DNA of 64,000 bases from the IMG/VR virus record IMGVR_UViG_3300048890_000135; one strand, written 5' to 3'. Both the position numbers and the translations under genes were made by a program. This stretch comes from an uncultured virus (IMG/VR IMGVR_UViG_3300048890_000135) (Duplodnaviria > Heunggongvirae > Uroviricota > Caudoviricetes). Below are positions 2,839 through 51,844 of the stretch, in pieces (position 1 is the first letter of the stretch; each line of letters begins with the position of its first letter). The notes beneath the pieces are model-generated. The model was given only the letters and a program-made list of their open reading frames with translations, made no database searches and was not told the DNA's origin.

Positions 2839-2852
2839 ATGGGAGGCGTTCG

Positions 2853-3260
2853 ATGATCCGCAAGCGCGGTCACTACATCGTCGAGTCGAACATGGGTCTC
2901 AACAGCTCGGCCCTTTGCCTGAAATGCTGGGATAGCTTCGACACACCGAGTCGCCACGGCCGAGCATCGACAGCTCCTATTTTTGATAGCCCATGTAAGG
3001 GAGACTGGAAGGAGGAGTCTGCCGTCGTCAAGAGGGGGTTCAGAGAAGCCGAGCAGAGACGCAAAAGACTTCTCAGGTTGATGTCCCTTGATCGGCGCCT
3101 CCAGAAGACCGCGACGAAGAAACGGAAATGGAAGAAGACCAGGTGTTCGACGTGCCGCTGCGTCGTAGGACCGTCGAAGTCATGCCCCTTCTGTTCCTTC
3201 CGCGTTTGCACGAAGCCTGCGTGCCTGGACCAGCACAGGAATTGCGGGAGCCGTTCATGA
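2853..3260 (+). CDS. Cys-rich basic hypothetical protein
   Basis: RBS GGGAGG; several CxxC pairs. Confidence 0.5.
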   Translation: MIRKRGHYIVESNMGLNSSALCLKCWDSFDTPSRHGRASTAPIFDSPCKGDWKEESAVVKRGFREAEQRRKRLLRLMSLDRRLQKTATKKRKWKKTRCSTCRCVVGPSKSCPFCSFRVCTKPACLDQHRNCGSRS

Positions 3261-15402: not shown

Positions 15403-15875
15403 TCAGACCGGACAAGATCATCTCCGGAGGCCAGACCGGCGCCGATCAGGCCGGACTCGATGCTGCTATGGAGCTTGGCATTCCTCACGGAGGATGGTGT
15501 CCGCTAGGTCGTCGTTCGGAAGATGGACCGATCCCGTCCAAGTATTCCCTCAAGGAGACTTTAAGCGACTACTACAGAGACCGGACCACCAGGAACGTGC
15601 AGGACTCTGACGGGACGATCATCTTCATCTGCGGTTCTATCGACGCGGAGCCTGGGAGCGCGCTGACCCTCAATCTCTGCAAGACGAACGAGAGGCCGAA
15701 CCTTCTGGTCAATCTCTCGATCGACTCGATCGAGAACGCAGCGAAGCTCGTTCGGGAATTCGTGCGCCACCATGAGATCAAGATTCTGAACGTCGCGGGG
15801 TCCAGAGCCTCGAACTCTCCGACGTTGGGGGCGAAGGTTGTCCAGGTGCTCAAGCTGGCGTTTTCGGAGGAATGA
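15399..15875 (+). CDS. SLOG-superfamily protein (putative molybdenum carrier / YpsA-like)
   Basis: KIISGGQTGADQAGLDAA, GGWCP, RTTRNVQDSDGT, LNVAGSR. Confidence 0.8.
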   Translation: MIRPDKIISGGQTGADQAGLDAAMELGIPHGGWCPLGRRSEDGPIPSKYSLKETLSDYYRDRTTRNVQDSDGTIIFICGSIDAEPGSALTLNLCKTNERPNLLVNLSIDSIENAAKLVREFVRHHEIKILNVAGSRASNSPTLGAKVVQVLKLAFSEE

Positions 15876-40173: not shown

Positions 40174-40212
40174 AAATGGGGATAGAATAGTCCCGTTCGA
40201 AAGGAGATCTCG

Positions 40213-40389
40213 ATGGCCAAAAAGGCGGTGAACCCTCACCTGACGGCGTACAGCTCCTGTGTCAAGGAGCTCGGTCTCAATCCAAGGATGATGAAGAAGG
40301 GCGTCAAGGGCGCGGAGCAGGCCAAGAAGAAGCTGAAGGCCTGCGCGATCGGCAAGCTCAACAAGATGGGTATCAAGCCCAAGAAGTAG
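40213..40389 (+). CDS. Small Lys-rich protein
   Basis: RBS AAGGAG; 58 aa, below ORF-track cutoff. Confidence 0.6.
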   Translation: MAKKAVNPHLTAYSSCVKELGLNPRMMKKGVKGAEQAKKKLKACAIGKLNKMGIKPKK

Positions 40390-40392
40390 ATC

Positions 40393-40773
40393 GTGGCGAA
40401 GCCAAGACGCCTCAAGAGACCTACCGCGCTGTGCTTTTCAAGAGGTGCAGCCCTTGCCACCGCTTATGAGCGGGTGCGTGCGGCGACGGGGAGTCTCAAC
40501 AAGGGAGATCTGTCGGCCGCGGACCATTACCTCTTCATCGCGAAGCTCGACCTCGAGAAGCATGGAAAGAGCGAGCTGATTTCGCCAAGCACGTCGCGCC
40601 GGATCGTTCGAGCCATCGAAGAGCCCCGACTGGCCATAAGGAAAGCGATGGAGACGCAGGCTCGAGGGAAAATCGGACGCGTCTCTTCCACCAGGGTCAC
40701 GCGCGTCCTTGGGGTTATCAGCGAGGCCGAGAAACGAGTCAAGAATCAGTGCTTCTTCGGAAAGGTCAAGTAG
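40393..40773 (+). CDS. Basic hypothetical protein
   Basis: Follows upstream stop by 3 nt. Confidence 0.55.
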   Translation: MAKPRRLKRPTALCFSRGAALATAYERVRAATGSLNKGDLSAADHYLFIAKLDLEKHGKSELISPSTSRRIVRAIEEPRLAIRKAMETQARGKIGRVSSTRVTRVLGVISEAEKRVKNQCFFGKVK

Positions 40774-40782
40774 GGGCCCATC

Positions 40783-41019
40783 ATGGCGAACGAAGAACAG
40801 CAGCGCCAGATGTTCGGGATGACTCTCGACCAGGTCATTTCCGAGAAGCCCAAGTTCGAAAATCCAGGCCTGTGGGCCATGTCGATCCTGAGCGACGTCC
40901 AGGAGATGCTGGCGAGGATCCCCTCCGACCGGAAGCCGGATCCGGTCATCCTCGACCGGGCCCGCCAATGGATCAACAAGGCCAAGTACTGGATTGACGT
41001 GGAGAGAGGCGACGAATAG
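40783..41019 (+). CDS. Hypothetical protein
   Basis: RBS AGGGG. Confidence 0.6.
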   Translation: MANEEQQRQMFGMTLDQVISEKPKFENPGLWAMSILSDVQEMLARIPSDRKPDPVILDRARQWINKAKYWIDVERGDE

Positions 41020-41031
41020 TCGCTGTAGGAC

Positions 41032-41286
41032 ATGTTCAGGCGCGTCGGGCCGGCAACTCTGAGGCTCGTGGAAGACGGATCCTCCGACATCGACATTCAC
41101 GTTCGGATCGGACCCGGGAACGAATGGCACGGCGTCGCAGCCTTTCCGATTGAGATGGCTGGTGATGCTAGGAACTGGATCGAAACCATCGAGACGCCCA
41201 ACGATCTTGAGGATCTGATTCGGGAATTCTGCGACGCCAGGACGTGGGGATCCTATCAAAACTTCAGGGATCTGAACGGATTCTAA
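41032..41286 (+). CDS. Hypothetical protein
   Basis: Fills operon. Confidence 0.55.
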   Translation: MFRRVGPATLRLVEDGSSDIDIHVRIGPGNEWHGVAAFPIEMAGDARNWIETIETPNDLEDLIREFCDARTWGSYQNFRDLNGF

Positions 41287-41287
41287 G

Positions 41288-42292
41288 ATGCCTCTTCCGA
41301 CCGAGATCCGGGAGAACACGTCCGAGCTCCTTCCCCTTGACGGTTATGACCACGTCATCGTGTCCTTTTCCGGGGGGAAGGACTCTCTCGCCTGCGTCCT
41401 TCACGCCCTAGAGCTTGGGATCCCGAGAGAGAAGATCGAGCTCTGGCACCAGGCCGTCGACGGGCGTCCCGGCATCGACCCGCGCTTCTTTGACTGGCCT
41501 TGTACGGAGAGCTACTGCAAGGACGTCGCCCGGGCGCTTGGGCTTCCGATCAAGTTCCAGTGGCGGGAAGGCGGATTCGAGCGGGAGATCAACAAACAGG
41601 ATGCACCGACGGCGAAGATCGGGTTCCAGCTCCCAGACGGCTCGGTCGGACAGGCCGGCGGGACCGGGGAGCCCAACACGCGCCTCATGTTTCCTGCTGC
41701 GGTGGCGGACCTCCGGACCCGGTGGTGCTCGGCAATCCTCAAGATCGACGTTGCAACTTCTGCGATCAATAATGATCCGCGCTTCAAGAGCGGGAAGATT
41801 CTTGAGATCACCGGAGAGCGCCGCCAGGAATCGAACAACCGCGCCCGCTATGCCGAGGTCGAGAAGCACAAGTCGACTACGCAGTCTCGCCGGGTCGACC
41901 AGTGGCGCGCGATCATCGACTGGCCCGAAGAGCGCGTCTGGGAAATCATCCAACGTTGGGGGATCCGACCTCATCCGGCCTACTACCTGGGGTGGGGCCG
42001 CGTCTCGTGCATGTTCTGCATCTTCGGGAATCCGGACCAGTGGGCGAGCGCGAACGCAGTGAACCCTCGGATGTTCTGGCGGATCCTGAACTATGAGCGC
42101 CAGTTCGGTCGCACGATCCAGCAGGGAGGCGACATCGAGCGCATCGCGTCAAAGGGCCGTAGCTACGTCCCTGACGATCCTGACATGATCCGAATGGCGA
42201 TGAGCGACGAACTCCCACACGGATACGCCCAGGCCGGCGCCGCCTGGACGATGCCGTTTGGGGCATTCAAGAGAAGCGGTGGACCCCTCTGA
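41288..42292 (+). CDS. PAPS reductase family protein (phage type)
   Basis: VSFSGGKDSLAC, RWCSAILK, GERRQES..R, HPAYYLGWGRVSCMFC. Confidence 0.8.
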   Translation: MPLPTEIRENTSELLPLDGYDHVIVSFSGGKDSLACVLHALELGIPREKIELWHQAVDGRPGIDPRFFDWPCTESYCKDVARALGLPIKFQWREGGFEREINKQDAPTAKIGFQLPDGSVGQAGGTGEPNTRLMFPAAVADLRTRWCSAILKIDVATSAINNDPRFKSGKILEITGERRQESNNRARYAEVEKHKSTTQSRRVDQWRAIIDWPEERVWEIIQRWGIRPHPAYYLGWGRVSCMFCIFGNPDQWASANAVNPRMFWRILNYERQFGRTIQQGGDIERIASKGRSYVPDDPDMIRMAMSDELPHGYAQAGAAWTMPFGAFKRSGGPL

Positions 42293-42358
42293 TCTCGAAT
42301 GCCTTGGCCATTTTGACGGCTCCGTGGTAGAGTGCAGATCGTAAGGAGATTTCGGGAT

Positions 42359-42553
42359 ATGACGAACTCCAAGCCCACCCCAGCAAAGTCCATCGGTCAG
42401 GTTCCGCTCAATTTGGGCCCGTCTTCCTGGGGCGGCGGCCTCCCGCCGGCTTACGCTGGGCCCCCGAAATGTCCTCCCGGAATGAAGGTGGGCCCTCGCG
42501 GCCTTTGCCGTCCCACAACGACGACGCTCGGCAGCGGGCGGCGTTCCCGATAG
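42359..42553 (+). CDS. Small Pro/Gly-rich protein
   Basis: RBS AAGGAG; SIGQVPLNLG. Confidence 0.5.
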   Translation: MTNSKPTPAKSIGQVPLNLGPSSWGGGLPPAYAGPPKCPPGMKVGPRGLCRPTTTTLGSGRRSR

Positions 42554-42569
42554 GTTCGGAGGAAAGCCT

Positions 42570-43367
42570 ATGCGCCCGTTCTTGGGTCGGGTTCCTCTCA
42601 GAGTTCCAGGATCTCGGTCTTTGGGTCAAGTCGAATTCACGGATCCGTGGGGCGGCGTTCATCGCGTGACCGTGGAGCCGCCCCCTCCAGAGATTCCGCC
42701 TTTTGACCCAAGAAGAACCCCAGAAGAAATGGAGCGCAGGGCGCTCCACGCCTCGAAAATCAAAGGAAAAGAACAGGAATGCGAGATCCTTAAAGCGAAC
42801 ATGGAGGCGCACAAGAGCCATTACTTCGACAGAGAAGAATCTGGAGATACGGAATATCAGAATTACACCGATGCGGTGGACGCCTACAACGGGTGTCTCG
42901 ATAAGATCGCCGCTCTTGAAGGAGAAATGGACACTGCGCCCGTGGATTTCGGAACGGAGTCTGGCTACGAATGGCCTCCAGAAATTCCAAATCCATCGAC
43001 TCCGCTCGAAGAGCAATTGCAACATCAGCCCCCTCTGGATGTTCCTTCCGTCGACTGGAGGACCCCCAGCACTGCGCCGCACGAATTGAACGAGTGGCCC
43101 GAGGAGGTTCCGTATCCGACGGGCGAGCCAGTCCCTCCGCCTGAGCCGCCCGAGCTCATCGAAACTCCGCCACCGGTCGCCAGCGTTGACTGGAGAACTA
43201 CCGGTTGTCCGGCAGGCACCGCGAGGCTCGTCCGCGGCGGCATGTGTGTTTCGTCGGGTCTCGTATCGTCGGCTTTGACGACGCCGATGACGACGGCGAC
43301 CCCTTTCACGATGGGGCGGGCAATGCTCGGCCAGGTCCATCTCGTGCGTCGTCCTGGCGCCTTCTAG
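42570..43367 (+). CDS. Pro-rich acidic protein (LGQ-motif group)
   Basis: RBS GGAGG; RSLGQ near N-terminus, RAMLGQ near C-terminus; SVDWRT repeated. Confidence 0.6.
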   Translation: MRPFLGRVPLRVPGSRSLGQVEFTDPWGGVHRVTVEPPPPEIPPFDPRRTPEEMERRALHASKIKGKEQECEILKANMEAHKSHYFDREESGDTEYQNYTDAVDAYNGCLDKIAALEGEMDTAPVDFGTESGYEWPPEIPNPSTPLEEQLQHQPPLDVPSVDWRTPSTAPHELNEWPEEVPYPTGEPVPPPEPPELIETPPPVASVDWRTTGCPAGTARLVRGGMCVSSGLVSSALTTPMTTATPFTMGRAMLGQVHLVRRPGAF

Positions 43368-43385
43368 AATTCGATTTTTTTCCGC

Positions 43386-43414
43386 TTGACACCGAACCTT
43401 TCGGCGGCTACGTT
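43386..43414 (+). promoter_or_regulatory. Sigma70-type promoter of the tRNA-array leader
   Basis: TTGACA 43386-43391, 17 nt, TACGTT 43409-43414. Confidence 0.7.
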
Positions 43415-43455
43415 GTTCATGTAACAGGACCACCGAACAAGGAGACGGACCTTCC

Positions 43456-43617
43456 GTGAGATCACTACCCTGCGTCCGAGACCAAAGGCCAACGATGGAG
43501 ATCCTCCATCGGCAGGCTTGGTCTCTGTTCGTGGGTTCGTATTCCCCGGCGACGTGCAGCAAGCCCGCCGGGAATCGAACCATCGAACAGACGGGCGCGG
43601 GGGCGATGGTGATGTAA
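43456..43617 (+). CDS. 53-aa pan-codon leader peptide (MRSLPCVRDQRPTMEILHRQAWSLFVGSYSPATCSKPAGNRTIEQTGAGAMVM)
   Basis: SD AAGGAG 43439-43444, GTG start, TAA 43615-43617; codons 2-32 all different; all 20 amino acids. Confidence 0.7.
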   Translation: MRSLPCVRDQRPTMEILHRQAWSLFVGSYSPATCSKPAGNRTIEQTGAGAMVM

Positions 43618-43651
43618 CAAGAGCTCGAAAAAACTGAAACCCCCGCGCCCG
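43592..43651 (+). promoter_or_regulatory. Antiterminator helix of attenuator
   Basis: CGGGCGCGGGGG (43592-43603) is the exact reverse complement of CCCCCGCGCCCG (43640-43651), the terminator 5' arm. Confidence 0.8.
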
Positions 43652-43672
43652 AAAGGACGCGGGGGTTTTTTT
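43637..43672 (+). terminator. Intrinsic terminator (attenuator) upstream of tRNA array
   Basis: AAACCCCCGCG-c-CC-GAAA-GG-a-CGCGGGGG followed by T7. Confidence 0.85.
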
Positions 43673-43678
43673 GTTGTA

Positions 43679-43935
43679 CCCACCGACCTTGGAAGGTCGG
43701 TGGGCGGATACCAGGGACTCAGGACGCCATCGGCTCCGGCCGGGCCCCTGAGCCAGGAAGCCGCGGCGCGTTGGCGCGCGCCGCACTTGAAAATCGGGCT
43801 GGAACGACAAAGATCGGAAGGGGAGGCCCATCCGGGAAGGGTGGGCCTCCCCGACCTCAATGCCAGGCCGTCACACGCTCGGGAAGCGAGTATACGCGAG
43901 GGGGATGAAATCTTCAAGCGGTGACGCGCCTTTCG
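43679..43935 (+). ncRNA. Unassigned structured RNA between attenuator and first tRNA
   Basis: Hairpins 43679-43704 and 43820-43852 plus further stems; no convincing ORF. Confidence 0.4.
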
Positions 43936-43936
43936 T

Positions 43937-44010
43937 CCGCCTGTAGCTCAACAGCAGAGCGTCTGGTTTCCACCCAGATGATGCCGGTGCGACTCCGGTC
44001 AGGCGGTCCA
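43937..44010 (+). tRNA. tRNA-Gly(TCC)
   Basis: Cloverleaf, loop TTTCCAC, U73, CCA. Confidence 0.85.
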
Positions 44011-44013
44011 CAT

Positions 44014-44088
44014 GCGGGCGTAGCGTAGAAGCAACGCGTCTCCTTCCCAAGGAGAAGATCGCGGGTGCAAGTCCCGCTGCCCGCTCCA
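44014..44088 (+). tRNA. tRNA-Gly(CCC)
   Basis: Cloverleaf, loop TTCCCAA, CCA. Confidence 0.85.
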
Positions 44089-44089
44089 C

Positions 44090-44163
44090 ATGCCGGTGGT
44101 GTAGCAGCAGCATCGCTGTTTCCAAGTCAGCGGGTAGAGGTGCGACTCCTCTCCGGCATGCCA
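44090..44163 (+). tRNA. tRNA-Trp(CCA)
   Basis: Cloverleaf, loop TTCCAAG, G73, CCA. Confidence 0.75.
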
Positions 44164-44174
44164 AAATTGAAAAC

Positions 44175-44250
44175 GCCTCTGTAGGGGAGTGGAGTCCCCG
44201 CCTCCCTGTCACGGAGGAGACCGTGGGTTCGAATCCCATCAGGGGCGCCA
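44175..44250 (+). tRNA. tRNA-Asp(GTC)
   Basis: Cloverleaf, loop CTGTCAC, CCA. Confidence 0.9.
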
Positions 44251-44335
44251 AGCTTCGGGCGATGTAACGGGCTCCGCGCGATGAGCCTGCACCGACAAGT
44301 CGAACGCGCGCTCGCTGGTGCGTGTCGCCCTTTAC

Positions 44336-44411
44336 TCCCACGTCGTCTAACCGGTAGGACGCCACGTTCTGACCGTGGAGATTCCAGGTTCGAATCCTGG
44401 CGTGGGAACCA
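44336..44411 (+). tRNA. tRNA-Gln(CTG)
   Basis: Cloverleaf, loop TTCTGAC, CCA. Confidence 0.9.
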
Positions 44412-44415
44412 ATCT

Positions 44416-44739
44416 TCAGATCCCGAATCGGCTCTTGATGTCGGGCATGAGGCGTCGGTAGGGAGTCGTCCCGTCGATGCGGTAGAACTCCTTGCCGTCC
44501 CTGAAGAAGACGAGCGTCGGGATCGAGGTGACCTCGTGCCTCTCGGTGGCTTTTGGCGCTTCGTCGATGTCGGCTCCGACGACGAGCACCTGACCTTGGA
44601 GCTCGCCGGCGATCTTGGCGATCGTGGGTTTGGCGGCCTTGCAGCCCGGGCACCAGGGTGCCCAGAACTCAATGATCGCCAGCGGCGCCTTGAGCGCCTC
44701 GTCGAAGTTCTTGTCCGTGACCTGCAGCAGTTCGCTCAT
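44416..44739 (-). CDS. trxA: Thioredoxin
   Basis: FWAPWCPGCK active site, SIPTL; antisense inside tRNA array. Confidence 0.9.
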   Translation of the reverse strand: MSELLQVTDKNFDEALKAPLAIIEFWAPWCPGCKAAKPTIAKIAGELQGQVLVVGADIDEAPKATERHEVTSIPTLVFFRDGKEFYRIDGTTPYRRLMPDIKSRFGI

Positions 44740-44828
44740 AAGTTCCCCCTTGCCGGGGGATTCTAGCCTATTTTTCATTCTTTGTCACACCCCTCTCGAT
44801 CCAGACGCGATACCTGTGGAGGTGCTGC

Positions 44829-45014
44829 ATGGACGATCGGGAGAAGCGGATCCAGGCGCTCACCGAGTATGGGTGGACGATCCGGAGAGACGGCTGGAGG
44901 GCCGGGGAAACGATCATCGAAAGATACGAGCTCGAGATTCCAGAGTTCAGACGTTGGGCCTATGCGCTCGGGATCGTGCTTCGTGCGGAAGAATTACTTG
45001 CCGGTCTGGCGTAG
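44829..45014 (+). CDS. Small hypothetical protein
   Basis: RBS GGAGGT; last codons overlap tRNA-Phe. Confidence 0.55.
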   Translation: MDDREKRIQALTEYGWTIRRDGWRAGETIIERYELEIPEFRRWAYALGIVLRAEELLAGLA

Positions 45015-45074
45015 ATAGTAGCGCGCCTGTCTGAAGAGCAGGAGGTTCCGGGGCGGTACCGGAGGCCGGCACCA
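45000..45074 (+). tRNA. tRNA-Phe(GAA)
   Basis: Cloverleaf, loop CTGAAGA, atypical T-loop, CCA. Confidence 0.8.
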
Positions 45075-45148
45075 GGGTCCATCGTCTAGCAGGAGGACGC
45101 GAGCGTGGCACGCTCGAGGCGGGAGTGCGATTCTCCCTGGATCCACCA
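45075..45148 (+). tRNA. tRNA-Ala(GGC)
   Basis: G3:U70, loop GTGGCAC, CCA. Confidence 0.85.
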
Positions 45149-45153
45149 AATCT

Positions 45154-45228
45154 TGCAGAGGAGAGGCATCCGGTGACCTCACCAGGCTCATAACCTGGGG
45201 CTTGCAGGTTCAAATCCTGCCTCTGCTA
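45154..45228 (+). tRNA. tRNA-Met(CAT), initiator-like
   Basis: Loop CTCATAA; 1:72 mismatch; no encoded CCA. Confidence 0.75.
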
Positions 45229-45229
45229 C

Positions 45230-45304
45230 GGGCCCATAGCTCAATCAGGAGAGCGGCCGGTTCGCAATCGGCAGACGGCGGGGCGGAACCGCCTGGGTCC
45301 ACCA
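45230..45304 (+). tRNA. tRNA-Ala(CGC)
   Basis: G3:U70, loop TTCGCAA, CCA. Confidence 0.85.
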
Positions 45305-45312
45305 AAATCCTT

Positions 45313-45388
45313 GGGTCCGTAGCTCAATCAGGAGAGCGCCTGCCTTGCAAGCAGGAGGTAGCGAGAGCAAAGCTCGCCGGATCCACCA
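45313..45388 (+). tRNA. tRNA-Ala(TGC)
   Basis: G3:U70, loop CTTGCAA, CCA. Confidence 0.85.
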
Positions 45389-45396
45389 AATTTCCT

Positions 45397-45489
45397 GGGC
45401 GCTGGTCCGCTCGGCGGTCTGTAAAACCGTTGTCCCAAAACAAGAGCGGCGGTTAAGGACGAGAGGTTCAACTCCTCCAGCTCCCACCA
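45397..45489 (+). tRNA. tRNA-Tyr(GTA), atypical (no normal D-arm, long variable region)
   Basis: Loop CTGTAAA, T-arm GGTTCAACTCC, ACCA end. Confidence 0.65.
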
Positions 45490-45490
45490 T

Positions 45491-45569
45491 TGCCCGGCAC
45501 TCTGTGTTGGTATCGGAGCTCCGCCTTTGAAGCGGGTGGACGAAGGTTCGATTCCTTCCCGGGCAACCA
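45491..45569 (+). tRNA. tRNA-Gln(TTG)
   Basis: Loop CTTTGAA, CCA. Confidence 0.8.
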
Positions 45570-45579
45570 GAAAATTTTT

Positions 45580-45653
45580 CGGGGTGTAGCACAAAGGTAG
45601 TGCGCCTCTTTGCCAAGGAGGAGAAGCCGGATCATTACCGGTCACCCCGTCCA
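45580..45653 (+). tRNA. tRNA-Gly(GCC)
   Basis: Loop TTGCCAA, U73, CCA. Confidence 0.8.
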
Positions 45654-45663
45654 AGATTTTCAT

Positions 45664-45738
45664 CGGCGTGTAGCTCAGTAGCTAGAGCATCCGGTTGATA
45701 ACCGGAAGAAGATGGGGCGGAACCATCCACGCCGACCA
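45664..45738 (+). tRNA. tRNA-Ile(GAT)
   Basis: Loop TTGATAA, CCA. Confidence 0.85.
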
Positions 45739-45746
45739 AATCTTAT

Positions 45747-45820
45747 GGGGCCAAAGTGTTGCGGCGGCACGGTCGGCTGTGACCCGGCCAGGGTGGGTTC
45801 GACTCCCACTGGTCCCTCCA
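45747..45820 (+). tRNA. tRNA-His(GTG)
   Basis: Loop CTGTGAC, CCA; lacks canonical G-1:C73. Confidence 0.8.
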
Positions 45821-45842
45821 AGATTCGATGTACAATGGGACG

Positions 45843-46052
45843 ATGCCTCATGTCGATCCGTCCTGGAGAGTTGAGAGCTCGAAATTTAATTGGCTCTCCA
45901 GGTTGCTTTGCGTCTTCGGGATCCATCACTGGGTCTGGAGCTCCACGCTCAAGGCGGCGATCGCCTGCGCCGTGTGCCCCAAGAAGACCAAGCGTTGGGA
46001 CGAATATCGTCAGCGCATGAAGGACGCCATGCACCGAAGTCTTGATCCATAA
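45843..46052 (+). CDS. Small Zn-binding-like hypothetical protein
   Basis: LLCVFGIHHW...CAVC; TACAAT 6 nt upstream. Confidence 0.55.
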   Translation: MPHVDPSWRVESSKFNWLSRLLCVFGIHHWVWSSTLKAAIACAVCPKKTKRWDEYRQRMKDAMHRSLDP

Positions 46053-46129
46053 CGGGCTCAGGGGTAGATAGCGACCCGCCTGCTTGGGGTGCAGGAGTAA
46101 GCGCGGTGCAAGTCCGCGGAGCCCGACCA
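46053..46129 (+). tRNA. tRNA-Pro(GGG)
   Basis: C1:G72, loop TTGGGGT, CCA. Confidence 0.85.
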
Positions 46130-46135
46130 GATCTT

Positions 46136-46438
46136 CGAAGCGTTCGGTCTGTCGGTGAAAGTCGACGCGATCACGGCGCGAAACGACCCACGTAAGTCTC
46201 CATGTCCTCAAGCCGCCTCGGAGGACGAAGGAGTGGCAGGGCCTTCGGGTCCGCTATTCGACCACATGCCTTTTGGAGATGATCATGGCCGGGCCGGGGA
46301 AGTGAAGAGCTTCCAAGATTTGTGTCAGCCCTGCCGCGAAAGCGAGAGACGCCATAAAGGGAGCGCGGGCTCTGAAGTACCGGCTAAAGCGTCCAGCAGG
46401 CGAGTGTGGGGGCTAAACCGAGGTCAGCGAACGCTTCG
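46136..46438 (+). ncRNA. raiA-motif RNA
   Basis: 11-bp closing helix CGAAGCGTTCG/CGAACGCTTCG; ordered blocks TGAAAGTCGA, AAACGACCCACGTAAG, CATGG, CCTGCCGC..GCGAGAG, TCCAGCAGGCGAGTGTGGGG, AGGTCA match the raiA consensus as I recall it. Confidence 0.8.
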
Positions 46439-46441
46439 TTC

Positions 46442-46515
46442 GGGCGCGTATTTCAAAAGCAGAATGCATCCGTGACATGGATGAGATGCTGGTGCAATTC
46501 CAGCCGTGCCCACCA
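46442..46515 (+). tRNA. tRNA-Val(GAC)
   Basis: Loop GTGACAT, CCA. Confidence 0.8.
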
Positions 46516-46533
46516 ATCTTGTAAGATGCTTCC

Positions 46534-46731
46534 ATGAGTCGCAAGGAAGAGATCCTGAGACGTGCTGCGGAAATGCAGCGCCAGGAGAAGACCTCCAGGA
46601 AACCTCCCGATAGGCCCTACGACGGAAGCGGGATGGTGTCGCGGATGCCGCTCGGATGCTGGCTCTGGATCCTCGGTCTCGCAGCGCTCGTCCTTTACGC
46701 CTTCAGCAGATTCATCGGCGGTGTACACTGA
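46534..46731 (+). CDS. Small membrane protein
   Basis: C-terminal TM helix; TAAGAT 6 nt upstream. Confidence 0.55.
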   Translation: MSRKEEILRRAAEMQRQEKTSRKPPDRPYDGSGMVSRMPLGCWLWILGLAALVLYAFSRFIGGVH

Positions 46732-46843
46732 AATCGACCGGACAACTCAGACCCCTAACTCTGGTGGCGGGGCTCGGGCTGGCAAGGATCGAGGGTGTGC
46801 GCCTTCGCGAGGGGCTGACCCGGGCCCCGCTCCCGTTGTTCAC

Positions 46844-46919
46844 GCCGGCGTAGTTTAGCAGCTCTGAATGCGGCATTGGTAATGCCGAGGTGCGGGGGCA
46901 GCACCCGCCGCCGGCTCCA
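46844..46919 (+). tRNA. tRNA-Thr(GGT)
   Basis: Loop TTGGTAA, CCA. Confidence 0.8.
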
Positions 46920-46924
46920 GAAAT

Positions 46925-46951
46925 AAAAAAGCCCGGGGAACAACCCCGGGC
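46925..46951 (-). terminator. Minus-strand intrinsic terminator-like hairpin
   Basis: AAAAAA-GCCCGGGG-AACAA-CCCCGGGC on + strand. Confidence 0.5.
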
Positions 46952-46985
46952 CCTGGGCGGGTCTAGTGATCGGATTGTATCACAC

Positions 46986-47060
46986 GCTGGCGTAGCTCAA
47001 CAGCAGAGCCCCCGCTTTGTAAGCGGACAGATGCCGGTGCAAGACCGGTCGCCAGCTCCA
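46986..47060 (+). tRNA. tRNA-Thr(TGT)
   Basis: Loop TTTGTAA, CCA. Confidence 0.85.
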
Positions 47061-47143
47061 GAAAAAACAAAGGCCAGGAGAATGGAGATCTCTATTCCCC
47101 TGGCCCAAAGGCGGTATGTATAGGAGAAATTCTACCAAGATCC

Positions 47144-47218
47144 GCCAGCCTGGTCTAATGAGAATGACGTCGGTTTCATAAGCCGAAAGTGACGGGGCAG
47201 ATCCGTCGGCTGGTACCA
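47144..47218 (+). tRNA. tRNA-CAT (elongator Met or Ile2)
   Basis: Loop TTCATAA, CCA. Confidence 0.75.
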
Positions 47219-47219
47219 C

Positions 47220-47313
47220 GGAGAGTTAAGCGAGTGGGAACTCGCCGCCCGCTCGAAACGGGATGGTGCCCGGCACAACTGGGCATGGGGATCAAGACCT
47301 CAGCTCTCCGCCA
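47220..47313 (+). tRNA. tRNA-Ser(CGA)
   Basis: Loop CTCGAAA, long variable arm, G73, CCA. Confidence 0.8.
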
Positions 47314-47393
47314 AAAAAAATTCGAGCCCAGGCGAAGTGCCTGGGCTCGGGAGAGGGAAACGCCTTTCGAAGGCTGTGAAAATTCTACCACAC

Positions 47394-47483
47394 GGAGACG
47401 AAGGCAGTCAGCGTGCCGCACCGGCTTGAACCCGGTTGCCCGGTTCGTCCGGGTCGCGCGTGCAACTCGCGCCGTCTCCTCCA
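47394..47483 (+). tRNA. tRNA-Ser(TGA)
   Basis: Loop CTTGAAC, long variable arm, CCA. Confidence 0.8.
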
Positions 47484-47559
47484 AAAAACTGATCAGAGAT
47501 GGTGGGCGAGCTTCTCTGTGATTTCGCCCTCAGGCTGGATCCATCAAGTCCGGCTTCAT

Positions 47560-47647
47560 GGAGGCGTTGGGCACTGGCAGGCCCAGCTCGTTGGAAGCGA
47601 GCCGGCTTTAACCGGCCGTGCAGGTTCGACTCCTGTCGCCTCCGCCA
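47560..47647 (+). tRNA. tRNA-Ser(GGA)
   Basis: Loop TTGGAAG, long variable arm, CCA. Confidence 0.85.
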
Positions 47648-47648
47648 T

Positions 47649-47739
47649 GGAAGGTAGCTCGATATCGGTTAGCGAGACGTGTTTGCTAAACACGGGCCCC
47701 TAAGACGGGCGGCGAGTTCGACTCTCGCACCTTCCGCCA
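47649..47739 (+). tRNA. tRNA-Ser(GCT)
   Basis: Loop TTGCTAA, long variable arm, CCA. Confidence 0.85.
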
Positions 47740-47816
47740 ATATTGAAGGTCACCAGTCGTTCGATCGAGCCAGGATAGCGTGCTCAGCACGACGGCTTCC
47801 GGTCGGCGATCTCCGA

Positions 47817-47892
47817 TGCGGGGTAGTGATACGGTCATCACGCGGGGCTCATAACTCCGAGACGGCGGGTTCAACTCCCCCTCCCGCTACCA
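47817..47892 (+). tRNA. tRNA-fMet-like (CAT)
   Basis: 1:72 mismatch, G-rich anticodon stem, loop CTCATAA, CCA. Confidence 0.8.
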
Positions 47893-47895
47893 CTT

Positions 47896-47970
47896 GCACC
47901 GTTGGCGAAATGGGAACGCGGCCGCCTGCAAAGCGGTCATGACCGGGCTCGATCCCCGGACGGTGCTCCA
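47896..47970 (+). tRNA. tRNA-Cys(GCA)
   Basis: Loop CTGCAAA, U73, CCA. Confidence 0.85.
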
Positions 47971-48000
47971 AGCTTCTTTTCCGAGCGCGCCCGGAGCGCT

Positions 48001-48294
48001 ATGATGGAGTTCATGGAGACCAAGTTCGCGGCCAATCCATTCCAGGGAATCTCGTTTGGCTTGGACCACGTCTTCATGTATCGCCAGGAGGACGCGCAGC
48101 GCTGGATCGTCTATAAGAGGAAGGACGGCCTGATCGTTGCTTCCTTCGACGGGACCGAAGCGTTTCCGGGATCCGCGCAGAATCTTGACGAGTCTCAGCG
48201 GGCATTCTGGGCCCGGGAGCTTGCCTATCAGGAATGCATCCGGAGAAATTCTCATGCGGCCCCTGATCTAGCGGCGATCGACACCACGCCATAG
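48001..48294 (+). CDS. Hypothetical protein inside tRNA array
   Basis: RBS GGAG; 97-aa frame between tRNAs. Confidence 0.55.
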   Translation: MMEFMETKFAANPFQGISFGLDHVFMYRQEDAQRWIVYKRKDGLIVASFDGTEAFPGSAQNLDESQRAFWARELAYQECIRRNSHAAPDLAAIDTTP

Positions 48295-48310
48295 CAGAAA
48301 CTTCACCAAG

Positions 48311-48386
48311 GCCGGTGTAGCTCATTCAGCAGAGCGCCGAGTTCGTAACTCGGAGGCGGCGAGGGCAGAGCTCGCCACCGGCTCCA
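48311..48386 (+). tRNA. tRNA-Thr(CGT)
   Basis: Loop TTCGTAA, CCA. Confidence 0.85.
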
Positions 48387-48387
48387 T

Positions 48388-48473
48388 ACCACGGTCGGGT
48401 AATCGGTAGCCCACCTCACTGTTAATGAGGCGCTCGAAAGAGTATGTAGGTTCGAATCCTACCCGTGGTGCCA
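48388..48473 (+). tRNA. tRNA-Asn(GTT) with extended variable arm
   Basis: Loop CTGTTAA, G73, CCA; extra hairpin GCTC-GAAA-GAGT. Confidence 0.85.
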
Positions 48474-48478
48474 ATCTT

Positions 48479-48553
48479 GCCCCTGTCGCGTAACAGATAG
48501 CGCGCCGAGCTTCTACCTCGGAAGTGCGGGTGCAATTCCTGCCGGGGGTACCA
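48479..48553 (+). tRNA. tRNA-Arg(TCT)
   Basis: Loop CTTCTAC, CCA. Confidence 0.85.
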
Positions 48554-48554
48554 C

Positions 48555-48628
48555 GGCCTCATCGACTATGAGTAGGTCGGCACCCTCTCAAGGTGCAGGA
48601 GCGAGTGCGAATCTCGCTGAGGCTACCA
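48555..48628 (+). tRNA. tRNA-Glu(CTC)
   Basis: Loop CTCTCAA, CCA. Confidence 0.85.
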
Positions 48629-48633
48629 ATCTT

Positions 48634-48707
48634 GGGCCGCTCGTCTATGAGTAGGATGCTGGTTCTTCAAACCGGCGGACAGGGTGCGAATCCCTGGCGG
48701 CCTGCCA
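48634..48707 (+). tRNA. tRNA-Glu(TTC)
   Basis: Loop TCTTCAA (C33), CCA. Confidence 0.8.
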
Positions 48708-48710
48708 GAT

Positions 48711-49190
48711 TTAGCTGAAGATCGCGTAGAGCGCGGCCGCGATCCCGACGGCGCCGAGAGCATATGGCGCAGCTTCTTCGATCGTGGTCTTCTTCTCTCC
48801 GGCATCGAATTCGAAAGCCGCTTCCCGAGATTCTGGAGGGTAGGGCGAGTAGTAGATCGGGGGAATGTACGGAAAGTAGTAGATCGGAGGACGAGGCCGA
48901 GGAGGGCAGCTTGCGGGCTCCTTCTTGTAGGTGATCGTTCCATCCGGCTGCTTGCATTCGAAGAGCTGGAGGCACGATCCGTTCTCTCTGAAGGGAACTC
49001 CGAGGCGCTTGCAGTCTGCTGGGGGAGGAGGAGGGGGAGGAGGCAGAGGCTCCGGCGCGGGTTCAGGTTCCGGCATCGGCGCGGGTTCCGGGGCAGGCAC
49101 ATCGGGGAGCGGTCCATTCTGGCCCATGCGGGTGCGCGTGAACGGGGATCCCTGAAACGGGAGCTGCCTCAAGAAGGTCTTCTGGAACAT
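48711..49190 (-). CDS. Pro-rich protein with C-terminal TM anchor (MGQ-motif group)
   Basis: RTRMGQNGP, poly-Pro, hydrophobic C-terminus; own TATAAT and AAGGAG. Confidence 0.7.
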   Translation of the reverse strand: MFQKTFLRQLPFQGSPFTRTRMGQNGPLPDVPAPEPAPMPEPEPAPEPLPPPPPPPPADCKRLGVPFRENGSCLQLFECKQPDGTITYKKEPASCPPRPRPPIYYFPYIPPIYYSPYPPESREAAFEFDAGEKKTTIEEAAPYALGAVGIAAALYAIFS

Positions 49191-49264
49191 TCCGCTCTCC
49201 TTTCGAGCTTCAGGAAGAATTATAGCTACAACCCAGATCCCAAAACACAGAGATCTACTTTCGT

Positions 49265-49460
49265 TTCCACAAGAGGGTGGCCTGCCGCGCGGGAATCGAA
49301 TTCCAACGATCTATCGGCCGCGCTCGAAAGGGCGCAGATCGCGAGGTAGATCGTCGAGGCAGAATAAGCGCCCCCGGGACGGCAGTGTACTAGTCCACGC
49401 TGCCGGAGCAAGGGTGACGAACCATCGTCAGATGGCGAACCAGGCCACCCCCTTGTGGAA
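49265..49460 (+). ncRNA. Unassigned ~196-nt multibranch RNA
   Basis: 19/20-bp closing helix 49265-49284/49441-49460 with internal stems. Confidence 0.55.
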
Positions 49461-49489
49461 CCGATCATGGCCCGCTGGCGGGCTTCCAA

Positions 49490-49563
49490 GCCTCCGTAGA
49501 TCAACAGCAGATGACCCGGCTTTTACCCGGGGGATGGGGGTGCAAATCCCTCCGGAGGCACCA
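49490..49563 (+). tRNA. tRNA-Lys(TTT)
   Basis: Loop CTTTTAC, CCA. Confidence 0.8.
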
Positions 49564-49668
49564 GAAATTTCGAAGTCGATCCCTCGAGGGACTCCGGGCG
49601 ATCCTGCAGGAAAACATATCTGCAGGATGCGCTTAACACGTCCGGAGCCCCGCGGAAGATCGACCAAT

Positions 49669-49742
49669 GGGAGCGTAGTTCAACAGCAGAAGACCCGGCT
49701 CTTACCCGGGGGATGAGGGTGCAACTCCCTCCGCTCCCACCA
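49669..49742 (+). tRNA. tRNA-Lys(CTT)
   Basis: Loop CTCTTAC, CCA. Confidence 0.85.
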
Positions 49743-49750
49743 AGCTTCAA

Positions 49751-49827
49751 GCCGCCGTGGCGCAACCAGCAGACGCGCCCAGCTCAAACCTGGGATCTTG
49801 CGGGTGCAAGTCCCGCCGGCGGCACCA
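49751..49827 (+). tRNA. tRNA-Leu(CAA), short variable loop
   Basis: Loop CTCAAAC, A73, CCA. Confidence 0.85.
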
Positions 49828-49831
49828 TCCT

Positions 49832-49907
49832 GGGCTCGTGGCGGAACAGCATACGCGCTCGTCTTAGGAACGAGATTTTGTGGGTGCAACTCCCACCGGG
49901 CCCACCA
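49832..49907 (+). tRNA. tRNA-Leu(TAG), short variable loop
   Basis: Loop CTTAGGA, CCA. Confidence 0.85.
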
Positions 49908-49914
49908 AACATTC

Positions 49915-49991
49915 GCGGCTGTGATGCAACTGGCAGACATCTTCGGCTCAGAACCGGAGTCCTGGAGGTTCGAATCCTCTCGGCCGCACCA
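49915..49991 (+). tRNA. tRNA-Leu(CAG), short variable loop
   Basis: Loop CTCAGAA, CCA. Confidence 0.85.
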
Positions 49992-49992
49992 G

Positions 49993-50066
49993 GCCCCGCT
50001 ATTTCAACAGCAGAATGCCTGTCTCACATACAGGTGATGGGGGTGCAACTCCCTCGCGGGGTACCA
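49993..50066 (+). tRNA. tRNA-Val(CAC)
   Basis: Loop CTCACAT, CCA. Confidence 0.8.
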
Positions 50067-50197
50067 AAATTAACGAGGCCGCAAAGGTCTGGCGACCTCA
50101 GCGGCCTCAGGTGGGGGAGAACTGGGACCCTCTCTCAAGGGCTGCTTTGTTCAAAAAGGGATCCAAAATCGTTCAAAAAGTTACGATGAAAATATTC

Positions 50198-50274
50198 GCG
50201 GCGATGATGCAACTGGTAGACATCTCCGGTTGAGAATCGGGGTCCTGGAGGTTCGAATCCTCTTCGCCGCACCA
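50198..50274 (+). tRNA. tRNA-Leu(GAG), short variable loop
   Basis: Loop TTGAGAA, CCA. Confidence 0.85.
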
Positions 50275-50282
50275 AAATTCTT

Positions 50283-50358
50283 CGGGCTGTTGGGTAATTG
50301 GTAGCCCGCCTGTTTCGGATACAGGAGTGTCCCGGTTCAAGTCCGGGCAGCCCGACCA
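50283..50358 (+). tRNA. tRNA-Pro(CGG)
   Basis: Loop TTCGGAT, CCA. Confidence 0.9.
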
Positions 50359-50367
50359 ATCTCTCGA

Positions 50368-50440
50368 GGACCGGTAGCTCAGCGGCAGGAGCGGCCGCCT
50401 CATAAGCGGACGGGAGCGGGATCGACACCCGCACGGTCCA
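50368..50440 (+). tRNA. tRNA-CAT (elongator Met or Ile2)
   Basis: Loop CTCATAA; followed by TCA rather than CCA. Confidence 0.75.
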
Positions 50441-50444
50441 TCAG

Positions 50445-50522
50445 CAGGGTGTAGCTCAGACAGTGATGAGCGCGTGCCTTGGAAGCACGAGGTCGCCGGT
50501 GCGAGTCCGGCCACCCTGACCA
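50445..50522 (+). tRNA. tRNA-Pro(TGG)
   Basis: Loop CTTGGAA, CCA. Confidence 0.85.
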
Positions 50523-50531
50523 AGTTTCCAA

Positions 50532-50605
50532 GCCCCCGTGGGGTAGTAGACGCCCGGCGATCTCCTACATCGCAAGGCCCGGTGCGACTCCGGGCGGGGG
50601 CTCCA
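50532..50605 (+). tRNA. tRNA-Arg(CCT)
   Basis: Loop CTCCTAC, CCA. Confidence 0.85.
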
Positions 50606-50613
50606 AGATTCAT

Positions 50614-50688
50614 CTCCCGGTGGGGTAACGGATTGCCCGCCACTCTGCGAAGGTGGAGGTGAGGGTTCGATTCCCTCCTGGGAGACCA
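50614..50688 (+). tRNA. tRNA-Arg(GCG)
   Basis: Loop CTGCGAA, CCA. Confidence 0.85.
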
Positions 50689-50691
50689 AAC

Positions 50692-50765
50692 GCCCCCATG
50701 GGGTAGCAGATGCCCGTCGCGCTTCGAACGCGAAAGTCCAGGTGCGACTCCTGGTGGGGGTTCCA
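50692..50765 (+). tRNA. tRNA-Arg(TCG)
   Basis: Loop CTTCGAA, CCA. Confidence 0.85.
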
Positions 50766-50784
50766 AGATTGTATACTGGGTGCG

Positions 50785-51060
50785 GTGACTCAAGTCGTCA
50801 ACATCCGGTACAGCCCCTGCGACGTCTACATCGGACGCGGATCCCCGTTCGGGAATCCGTACATGCTTGGCCCGGATGGTGATCGCGAAGAGGTGATTCG
50901 GCTCTACCGGGCCGATTTCAACTTCAAGATCAAAAACGATCACGCCTTCCGCGCCAATGTGGAAGCGCTTCGTGGGAAAAAGCTCGGATGCCACTGCCAT
51001 CCGATGTCATGCCACGGGGACGTGATCGTCGAATACCTCGAGCAGGCCCCGGTGGTGTAA
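50785..51060 (+). CDS. DUF4326-family protein
   Basis: DVYIGRGSPFGNPY, LRGKKLGCHCHPMSCHGDV. Confidence 0.8.
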   Translation: MTQVVNIRYSPCDVYIGRGSPFGNPYMLGPDGDREEVIRLYRADFNFKIKNDHAFRANVEALRGKKLGCHCHPMSCHGDVIVEYLEQAPVV

Positions 51061-51117
51061 CAGATCGCACGGCGGTCTCCGAAGCCGCAAGTCCAGGCGC
51101 GACTCCTGGCCGGGGTA
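51046..51117 (+). tRNA. tRNA-Arg(CCG)
   Basis: Loop CTCCGAA; no encoded CCA; 5' end overlaps DUF4326 stop. Confidence 0.8.
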
Positions 51118-51176
51118 CTAGAATCGAGATAGAATCGTTCCAGCCCGATTTTCTCAGGTCTGCAAGGAGGTGGCCC

Positions 51177-51788
51177 GTGGAGGCCTTGAAGGCGCTCGAC
51201 CGCACGGTGCTGGTGCTCAACCGGCGCTGGGATCCTATCCAGACGACGTCCGTCAAGGACGCGATCGGCCTGGTCGCCAAGGGATCTGCTTTCGTCATCG
51301 ACCCGGCCACGTTCGACCGGCATGACCTGATTTCCTGGGGAGAAGTCTCCAAGGCGATGAAGGTCGTCGGCGACGGCCTGATCCGCTCCCAGCATCTGGC
51401 GATCGTCCCGCCCGAGGTGGTTGTCCTCACGGAGTACGAAGGACGTGGCGAGCGGTCGGTGGTCTTCTCGCGGAAGAACATCTTCAAGCGCGACCGGTAC
51501 ACCTGCCAGTACTGCGGGAAGCAGCCGGGTCCGGAGGAGCTCACGATCGACCATGTGATCCCTCGGAGCCGCGGCGGGACGTCGACATGGGAGAACTGTC
51601 TGCTCGCGTGCGTTGAGTGCAACAAGCGCAAGGCCGACAAGACGCTCGAGCAGGCTGGGATGGCTCCTCGCAAGACGCCGAAGAAGCCAAGCTGGAAGAC
51701 GCTCGCCCAGGTCCATCCCAAGGCCCGGCGCGAGAGCTGGGAGCAGTTCCTCGGCCGTGCATACTGGGAGGTCGAGCTCGAACCCTGA
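51177..51788 (+). CDS. HNH endonuclease
   Basis: VLVLN, RKNIFKRDRYTCQYCG, TIDHVIPRSRGG, WENCLLACVECNKRK; RBS AAGGAGGT. Confidence 0.9.
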   Translation: MEALKALDRTVLVLNRRWDPIQTTSVKDAIGLVAKGSAFVIDPATFDRHDLISWGEVSKAMKVVGDGLIRSQHLAIVPPEVVVLTEYEGRGERSVVFSRKNIFKRDRYTCQYCGKQPGPEELTIDHVIPRSRGGTSTWENCLLACVECNKRKADKTLEQAGMAPRKTPKKPSWKTLAQVHPKARRESWEQFLGRAYWEVELEP

Positions 51789-51805
51789 TCGTCAGGTGCG
51801 GATCG

Positions 51806-51844
51806 AAACAGCCCGGATGGAAACGTCCGGGCTGTTTTTCTTTC
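51806..51844 (+). terminator. Intrinsic terminator closing the tRNA/HNH unit
   Basis: AAACAGCCCGGATG-GAAA-CGTCCGGGCTGTTT followed by T-rich tail. Confidence 0.8.

Follow-up and report, generated by a model that had tools for sequence, protein, structure and literature searches.

Few bacterial RNAs that lack a known biochemical function match the raiA-motif RNA (raiA/ModT) in abundance and conservation. The motif has been studied repeatedly (Weinberg 2017; Soares 2024; Lence 2024; He 2026), and structures from cryo-electron microscopy (cryo-EM) as well as knock-out phenotypes have been published (PMC10861870, PMC11706538, PMC12968392). In bacteria, raiA was described as a gene carried on the chromosomes of Bacillota and Actinomycetota and passed on vertically, for which horizontal transfer was judged unlikely (PMC10861870). 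The portions of the literature searched make no mention of raiA in phages or in phage tRNA arrays; the supplementary alignments of PMC10861870 and PMC12286853 may hold some. Here we describe a raiA RNA in the tRNA array of an uncultured virus of the Caudoviricetes (IMG/VR record IMGVR_UViG_3300048890_000135), of which a stretch of 64,000 nucleotides (hereafter the window) was analysed. A phage-borne variant of this known RNA family is new.

Scanning of the window with cmscan against Rfam 15 revealed a match to the raiA family (RF03072) at positions 46138-46436 of the plus strand, with a score of 104.2 bits and an E-value of 1.9e-24. The match spans model positions 1-209 of 209, is not truncated and exceeds the Rfam gathering cut-off of 101.3 bits, as do those of 10 of the 11 related contigs described below. 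The original prediction, made from the letters of this DNA, that the element is a raiA-motif RNA thus holds against the covariance model. The 11-bp helix that it saw closing the element consists of the 9-bp P1a and two outer pairs, the tRNA genes located by ARAGORN put the element between tRNA-Pro and tRNA-Val as proposed, and the extra hairpins that it noticed are two inside a 71-nt insertion; a third inserted hairpin lies further downstream (Table 1).

To describe the fold, the Rfam alignment was annotated with the architecture published by He et al. 2026 (PMC12968392); in the terms of that paper, the outer "<<<<<<<" helix of Rfam is pseudoknot 1 (PK1), and P4 is CCAcg/UgUGG. The core helices, whose formation had been left to be checked, are all present: every pair of the P1 arm forms (9-bp P1a, GU bulge, P1b, GGU bulge and P1c), and so do the pairs of P3a/P3b and P4. 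PK1 comprises four Watson-Crick pairs and one A.G, and is invariant within the lineage. A de novo fold by RNAalifold recovered P1a, P1c, P3 and the inserted hairpins; its long-range pairs in the middle of the element conflict with the cryo-EM architecture, and the literature-based structure was therefore adopted.

Relatives were sought with a lineage-specific pattern, which combines the raiA pattern with the unusual P3b letters of this copy. It recovered 11 soil or rhizosphere metagenome contigs, long ones of 98 kb and 156 kb among them, and gave no match in one genome per species from 185,579 species. Together with the window these contigs provide 12 copies, corresponding to six distinct sequences that are 88.0-99.7% identical to the window. 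All 12 are 299 nt long, and each lies directly after a tRNA-Pro. Ten relatives score 101.4-104.3 bits over a 299-nt match. In these ten, as in the window, the RNA sits between tRNA-Pro(ggg) and tRNA-Val(gac) within syntenic arrays of up to 38 tRNAs, with 8-10 nt upstream and 5 nt downstream of the 299-nt RNA. In the eleventh relative, L037, the RNA (2705-3003, minus strand) follows tRNA-Met and tRNA-Pro(tgg) with a gap of 8 nt, and downstream of it comes coding sequence in place of tRNA-Val; the module has thus changed from one tRNA-Pro gene to another. P1a of L037 has been re-coded through three compensatory pairs and extended to 13 bp, the extension ranging from one to four pairs across the lineage. 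DNA near-identical to the region 45800-46800 (at least half of the sampled words) is present in 14 soil, rhizosphere or root sequencing runs; three of these are possibly the source, and the other 11 come from eight named studies and an unnamed one.

The 86-pair cryo-EM-based structure was scored on the 12-sequence alignment. Among the 516 cells, 96.9% pair, and 11 of the 86 pairs have changed on both sides, compared to a shuffle mean of 3.1 (standard deviation 1.4); none of 500 shuffles reaches 11. Sliding the partners by 1-3 columns left 0-2 double-changed pairs and 36-41% pairing. The compensatory pairs fall in P1a (three, plus one in its extension), P1c (one), P4, inserted hairpin A (three), inserted hairpin B (one) and inner P8 (one), whereas P3a and P3b do not vary among the 12 copies. 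Between the window and the related contig L042, raiA is 97.0% identical, compared to 75.4% and 87.7% for the flanking gaps that bear open reading frames (ORFs) and 78-100% for the flanking tRNAs. L037 aligns to the window only at raiA, two tRNAs and one 105-nt piece. The compensatory pairs, the high identity of raiA and its persistence in L037 together indicate that the gene is under purifying selection for structure.

For comparison with cellular raiA, bacterial copies were fetched with a generic raiA pattern without P2 from 120 of an estimated 1900 genome stretches. A total of 111 copies could be delimited (37 Acidimicrobiia, 44 Clostridia, 9 Negativicutes and others), the remaining nine being dropped for an unrecognisable 3' end. 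In this set, conservation reaches at least 95% in 78 columns, of which the fetch pattern itself fixes 20; all five of the distinct phage rows compared retain 66 of the 78. Among the 12 differing columns, nine are halves of pairs that changed on both sides, namely 16:193 in P1c, 37:88 and 38:87 in PK1, 32:40 in P3b and, in L037, 54:179 in P4. At the P3b pair 32:40, all 12 phage copies have G:C, versus C:G in 104 and U:G in seven of the 111 bacterial ones; likewise, both strands of two pairs in PK1 are flipped at columns conserved in 106-110 of the 111 bacterial copies. In a quick maximum-likelihood tree, six phage-type rows form a clade with 100% support in the Shimodaira-Hasegawa-like approximate likelihood ratio test (SH-aLRT), outside all 111 bacterial rows. 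The branch leading to the clade measures 1.79 changes per column (joining the bacterial rows via 1.79+0.22, with an arbitrary root), and the tree points to no raiA donor.

Overall, the phage RNA shares with bacterial raiA/ModT the P1a/b/c arm with its GU and GGU bulges, the G-A-A turn, P4, PK1, P6, the P3a/P3b hairpin, whose asymmetric loop is A-rich, and a short P7 capped by a GNRA loop; the absence of P2 is shared with the Clostridium subtype. It differs from bacterial raiA/ModT in its 299-nt length with three additional hairpins, the flipped P3b and PK1 pairs, the apparent loss of a pair in pseudoknot 2 (PK2), the loss of the linker ahead of P6, the changed E-loop residues and the very long separate branch. 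Moreover, the bacterial gene lies on the chromosome between comFC and raiA/hpf in Bacillota and Actinomycetota, whereas the phage copy is flanked by tRNAs; no tRNA occurs within ~300 nt of raiA in any of the 120 bacterial loci. The RNA is thus a member of the raiA family by model and core architecture, yet a new subtype in structure and setting. The original prediction was right about the raiA identity and the phage-like tRNA array, and missed the alteration of features that are near-universal in raiA.

In the array itself, between 43937 and 51118, ARAGORN finds 38 tRNAs, all of them on the plus strand. With the 35 places marked by the Rfam tRNA model, six of them beyond ARAGORN (45000, 45230, 45313, 46844, 47144 and 48311), the total comes to ~44, and a transfer-messenger RNA (tmRNA) follows downstream. 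The surrounding genes are phage-like. A gene list guided by GC3 (G+C content at third codon positions) contains 79 ORFs, nearly all on the plus strand. Matches to PHROGs and Pfam include tail fibre (three families), a HerA/terminase-like ATPase, an SF2 helicase, a DNA polymerase exonuclease, Mom-like, cpYpsA, two proteins resembling 3'-phosphoadenosine-5'-phosphosulfate (PAPS) reductase, ThyX, a DnaJ-domain protein, a cold-shock protein, mycobacteriophage GP88, HNH and thioredoxin, while most of the proteins belong to no PHROG or Pfam family. Neither database yielded a recognisable capsid or portal gene in the 64 kb, and Pfam found no RaiA/HPF, ComFC or KH/R3H domain in the 79 proteins. A 552-aa AAA protease-like protein has its best tblastn matches in jumbo Bacillus phages and also in Rhizobium phages, and the helicase best matches an Acidobacteriota phage (28% identity), then actinophages. 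One PAPS-reductase-like neighbour gene has 22 relatives in IMG/VR, including one in a complete 72.7-kb genome with terminal repeats. The loci around these 22 relatives hold only three tRNAs, in two loci; seven of the loci have no Rfam match, and none of five whole records contains raiA, so that the array is not common to those relatives. From this gene content we read the window as part of a large uncultivated phage.

Ahead of the array, a 560-nt leader (43380-43940) is ~95% identical in five related contigs and contains a promoter-like site (TTGACA-17-TACGTT), which lies ~550 nt upstream of the first tRNA. This site is followed by ~215 nt, a strong terminator hairpin with a U-run (43637-43672), which could serve both strands, and three GC-rich hairpins; the only Rfam matches of the leader are sub-threshold and triggered by the terminator. 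The leader may be what the original prediction took for a translation-sensing attenuator; it could control the array as an attenuator or leader, or as a further structured RNA. Between this hairpin and another at 51805-51838, no plus-strand terminator-like site of more than six stem pairs was found (43672-51805). In an RNA-seq metatranscriptome (X16), 257 nt of a 260-nt contig lie on 46154-46410, with seven differences, all inside raiA, which hints weakly at an RNA product. The same metatranscriptome leaves the flanking ORFs (45828-46052 and 46534-46731) uncovered, an absence that proves nothing at a depth of 3. Contigs on raiA from two further runs (X15 and X19) come from libraries that are possibly DNA, and a contig of a diverged relative (X20) runs from tRNA-Pro into unlike sequence and is uninformative on raiA.

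Taken together, we propose, with slightly more confidence than doubt, that the element is a functional, divergent raiA/ModT gene fixed in the tRNA/tmRNA array of a soil and rhizosphere phage lineage, that it is released by tRNA processing, and that it acts in trans on the cellular raiA/ModT pathway. Family membership, the constant place beside tRNAs, selection on the structure and the phage-like surroundings are what the data show; co-transcription, the release and a role in translation or stress, the latter two also put forward in the original prediction, are inferred. The RNA would be co-transcribed with the tRNAs on one precursor, from which RNase P, by cutting at the tRNA-Val 5' end, and the maturation of the tRNA-Pro 3' end would free an RNA of ~300-310 nt; spacers of 6 nt and 3 nt on the two sides of the closing helix suggest this route and a product of ~305 nt. 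The 11-bp helix may then shield the freed RNA from trimming. The retention of the core and P1 suggests action in trans as in bacteria, and the compact core (P1b/c, P3, P4 and PK1) would permit it in the infected cell. The pathway in question would control stable-RNA and translation capacity as cells pass between growth phases. A target in tRNA and translation capacity is suggested by the company of a near-complete tRNA set and a tmRNA, and is consistent with the C. difficile ModT deletion, which raised 75 of 90 tRNA loci and 5S rRNA (PMC11706538). The phage copy may thereby supplement or override the host RNA while the phage translates with its own tRNAs and tmRNA.

A number of observations weigh against this proposal. 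The score of 104.2 bits is only just above the cut-off, and L037 falls below it (99.6 bits, E-value 3e-24). The minimum free energy of the element (-123.1 kcal/mol, z = -1.44) is equalled by 10 of 100 shuffles; thermodynamics alone does not distinguish the element, whose support comes from the covariance model and the comparison with relatives. The covariation in turn rests on few events, since the 12 copies represent six distinct sequences of one lineage. The survey of phages for raiA beside tRNAs, called for by the original prediction, recovered this lineage, and neither the IMG/VR patterns nor phage blastn found a second one. Generic patterns for the 3' and 5' blocks of raiA, which demand an exact match at fixed letters so that divergent copies can escape, yielded in IMG/VR two loci for the 3' block (one chance match and a canonical raiA, L002) and 12 for the 5' block, none of the 12 with any Rfam match; no raiA inside a tRNA array elsewhere in IMG/VR emerged from these scans. 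A blastn search with the raiA of the window and that of L002 against 50,697 phage records gave only chance-level matches of 19-27 nt. No sigma-70-like promoter was found on the plus strand inside the array, the X16 contig is no proof of transcription because DNA can occur in RNA libraries, and we name no host because the matches of the helicase, the protease-like protein and the tmRNA disagree.

The departures from bacterial raiA bear on the same question. In bacteria, a 10-nt single-stranded linker, UUAGA(C/A)GUAA, lies between PK1 and P6, and was proposed by He et al. as the site that KhpA-KhpB binds (PMC12968392). Its TAG..GTA motif is present in 101 of the 111 bacterial copies and in none of the 12 phage copies, where the aligned stretch keeps ~5 of 10 residues. 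Since 10 bacterial copies fail the same test, we take the motif as typical, not defining. In the phage RNA, 129 nt separate P4 from the linker, compared to 33-47 nt in the 75 strict-motif bacterial copies. PK2 keeps its G-C pair, but its second pair, which covaries in the 111 bacterial copies (U-A 91, C-G 5), is U.U in all 12 phage copies; a register shift of PK2 is possible. PK1 carries the invariant A.G mentioned above, and the P8 residues aligned to the E-loop depart from the consensus. P8 with an E-loop, which docks on PK1, occurs in 68% of family members (PMC10861870), and peripheral stems are optional in the family (PMC10861870, PMC12968392). With near-universal features changed in this way, the RNA may no longer do the job of bacterial raiA.

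Four other explanations address these facts. The loss of the linker and the weakening of PK2 keep open a decoy or antagonist, whose core and P1, as the parts that host partners would recognise, would sequester a host factor or act in competition with the raiA/ModT of the host, and which would block a host switch to stationary phase, dormancy or sporulation that otherwise aborts phage production. In its favour, the core and P1 are selectively retained (66 of 78 columns, the differences mostly compensated), the linker is wholly lost and the PK2 pair is broken in every copy; moreover, knock-outs tie raiA/ModT to the transition phase and sporulation (PMC10861870, PMC11706538). No partner of the core or P1 is known, however, the binding of KhpA-KhpB to the linker is itself a proposal, and the data fit supplementation of the host RNA as well as antagonism. 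We regard a decoy as unlikely. Repurposing of the fold, either as a stable spacer or processing platform for tRNA-Pro or for a phage-specific function apart from cellular raiA, seems quite improbable to us. It would suit an element that stands directly 3' of tRNA-Pro in two array slots (after Pro-GGG in 11 copies and after Pro-UGG in L037), bears three lineage-specific inserted hairpins, two of them with covariation, and is set apart by a very long branch from every one of the 111 bacterial raiA sampled. However, a spacer has no need of 66 of 78 core positions of raiA or of compensated pairs in the pseudoknots, and the other tRNAs of the array stand just 1-10 nt apart without such elements.

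A host raiA captured by recombination, and now decaying as a functionless hitch-hiker, could account for a score near the Rfam cut-off, the lost linker, broken PK2 pair and altered E-loop, and the finding of a single phage lineage; yet raiA keeps 97% identity against 75-88% in the neighbouring ORF-bearing gaps, it persists in the distant L037 where flanking genes no longer align, it has accumulated 11 compensatory pairs where 3.1 are expected, and all 12 copies have kept their 299 nt. We consider such a relic very improbable. That the DNA is not of phage origin at all, being instead a bacterial chromosomal or plasmid island with a tRNA array like the GOLLD-bearing arrays of Mycobacterium, is in our view equally hard to credit. 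Bacterial tRNA arrays with a large non-coding RNA do exist (Morgado et al. 2020, cited in PMC12286853), and no capsid or portal gene was recognised; against this stand the tail-fibre, terminase-like, Mom-like, GP88 and HNH matches amid proteins mostly of no family, the genes almost all on one strand, and relatives of a neighbouring gene in IMG/VR viral contigs, one of them complete. In addition, the lineage-specific pattern is absent from the species sampled, and the raiA region has no match in 72,556 plasmids.

Beyond the favoured proposal of a functional raiA/ModT gene released from the tRNA array, we also entertain, tentatively and with more doubt than belief, a wider reading in which raiA/ModT belongs to a portable translation RNA toolkit with tRNAs and tmRNA, and the re-engineered copy of large phages takes over the growth-phase control that the host exerts on stable RNA and ribosome capacity. 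Such a copy, with the core kept, PK1 re-coded, the linker dropped and arms added, would replace or block host raiA. It would then be a natural separation-of-function mutant, which could reveal the active parts of raiA and tie raiA mechanistically to tRNA metabolism.

Table 1. Coordinates of the phage raiA RNA, its structural parts and the neighbouring RNA genes (positions of the window).
Feature	Position	Strand	Remarks
raiA/ModT-family RNA, phage subtype, including 2-bp P1a extension	46136-46438	+	RF03072
P1a 5' strand	46138-46146	+	pairs with 46428-46436, 9 bp
P1a outer extension pairs	46136/46438, 46137/46437	+	closing helix 46136-46146 with 46428-46438, 11 bp
GU bulge	46147-46148	+	equals bacterial positions at least 95% conserved
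P1b 5' strand	46149-46151	+	3' strand 46425-46427
P1c 5' strand	46152-46156	+	3' strand 46417-46421
G-A-A turn	46157-46159	+	equals bacterial positions at least 95% conserved
P3a/P3b hairpin	46161-46187	+	mapped from PMC12968392 onto the Rfam alignment
P3a	46161-46164 with 46184-46187	+	4 bp
P3b	46167-46169 with 46177-46179	+	3 bp
PK1 5' strand, in P3b apical loop	46172-46176	+	partner 46289-46293
P4	46188-46192 with 46405-46409	+	5 bp; C-G to A-U in L037 (columns 65/282)
P5 arm, enlarged by 71-nt insertion	46196-46202 with 46274-46280	+	cmscan alignment
71-nt insertion in a model hairpin loop	46203-46273	+	cmscan
Inserted hairpin A	46204-46209 with 46221-46226	+	3 compensatory pairs
Inserted hairpin B	46231-46243 with 46248-46259	+	1 compensatory pair
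PK2 5' strand	46286-46287	+	partners 46413-46414
PK1 3' strand	46289-46293	+	partners 46172-46176
Second insertion, ~23 nt	46295-46317	+	cmscan
Third inserted hairpin, 6 bp	46298-46314	+	without counterpart in the Rfam consensus; one C-G to U.G change
Stretch aligned to the bacterial single-stranded linker, diverged here	46318-46328	+	cmscan alignment
P6	46330-46334 with 46396-46400	+	
P7, GAAA loop	46335-46344	+	
P8, altered E-loop region	46348-46393	+	outer and inner helices form
3' strands of P4, PK2 linker, P1c, P1b, P1a	46405-46436	+	
GGU bulge	46422-46424	+	equals conserved bacterial columns
tRNA gene array containing the raiA gene	43937-51118	+	ARAGORN and Rfam tRNA model
tRNA-Pro(GGG), encoded CCA	46053-46129	+	ARAGORN; 3' end 6 nt before the raiA closing helix
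tRNA-Val(GAC)	46442-46515	+	ARAGORN; 5' end 3 nt past the raiA closing helix
tmRNA, tag GKRQLSLAA	52277-52626	+	ARAGORN; RF00023, 122.8 bits

Several further features of the window were recorded. The tmRNA tag GKRQLSLAA is unusually short, and only the last ~30 nt of this RNA match other phage records. The two ORFs that flank the Pro-raiA-Val block (74 codons, 45828-46052; 65 codons, 46534-46731) have gene-like GC3, show a hydrophobic stretch each when inspected by eye, and have no family matches. A thioredoxin gene lies antisense within the tRNA array (44416-44778, minus strand), with a promoter-like site at 44788-44760 on the same strand. Ahead of the array leader, the ~1.3 kb from the PAPS-reductase-like gene onwards (42293-43636) contain long ORFs on both strands, none with gene-like GC3. 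Two regions, 13725-17650 and 38800-42292, hold a likely DNA-modification set, consisting of the Mom-like gene (14587-15402), a cpYpsA SLOG protein (15399-15875, E-value 3e-51), the SF2 helicase and the two PAPS-reductase-like proteins (38800-40173 and 41288-42292). Outside the window, the canonical raiA of L002 (12-217, 188 bits) lies at the extreme edge of a 27-kb viral contig without tRNAs. A tyrosine integrase gene (325-1527) lies at a distance of 108 nt, followed by Peptidase_M78 and helix-turn-helix repressor-like genes. A temperate phage may use the raiA gene as an integration site, as phages use tRNA and tmRNA genes.

Among stable RNAs other than tRNAs, phage T4 makes small ones, the species 1 and 2 RNAs, from its tRNA cluster. 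These RNAs and phage tmRNA resemble the present element in being non-tRNA stable RNAs of a tRNA cluster, presumably released by tRNA enzymes; they differ in being tRNA-like or small, compared to a ~300-nt ornate member of the raiA family. GOLLD (RF01998) and ROOL (RF03087) are likewise large structured RNAs of phages and prophages, often located by tRNA islands (PMC5737381, PMC12286853). Their sequence and fold are unrelated to raiA, and they form multimeric cages, unlike raiA, which is monomeric in cryo-EM (PMC12286853); neither family was found in the window at the Rfam gathering threshold. In genomic logic only, GOLLD and ROOL in phage tRNA islands are the closest analogy. Compared to bacterial raiA/ModT, the phage RNA offers a natural variant in which P1 and the core are kept while the linker proposed to bind KhpA-KhpB is missing, which makes that proposal directly testable. 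A copy selected inside a tRNA/tmRNA array also provides an independent hint, from its neighbourhood, that raiA works with tRNAs and translation. Altogether, this lineage indicates that raiA can be mobile, and puts it in the company of GOLLD and ROOL among the large RNAs found in phage tRNA islands.

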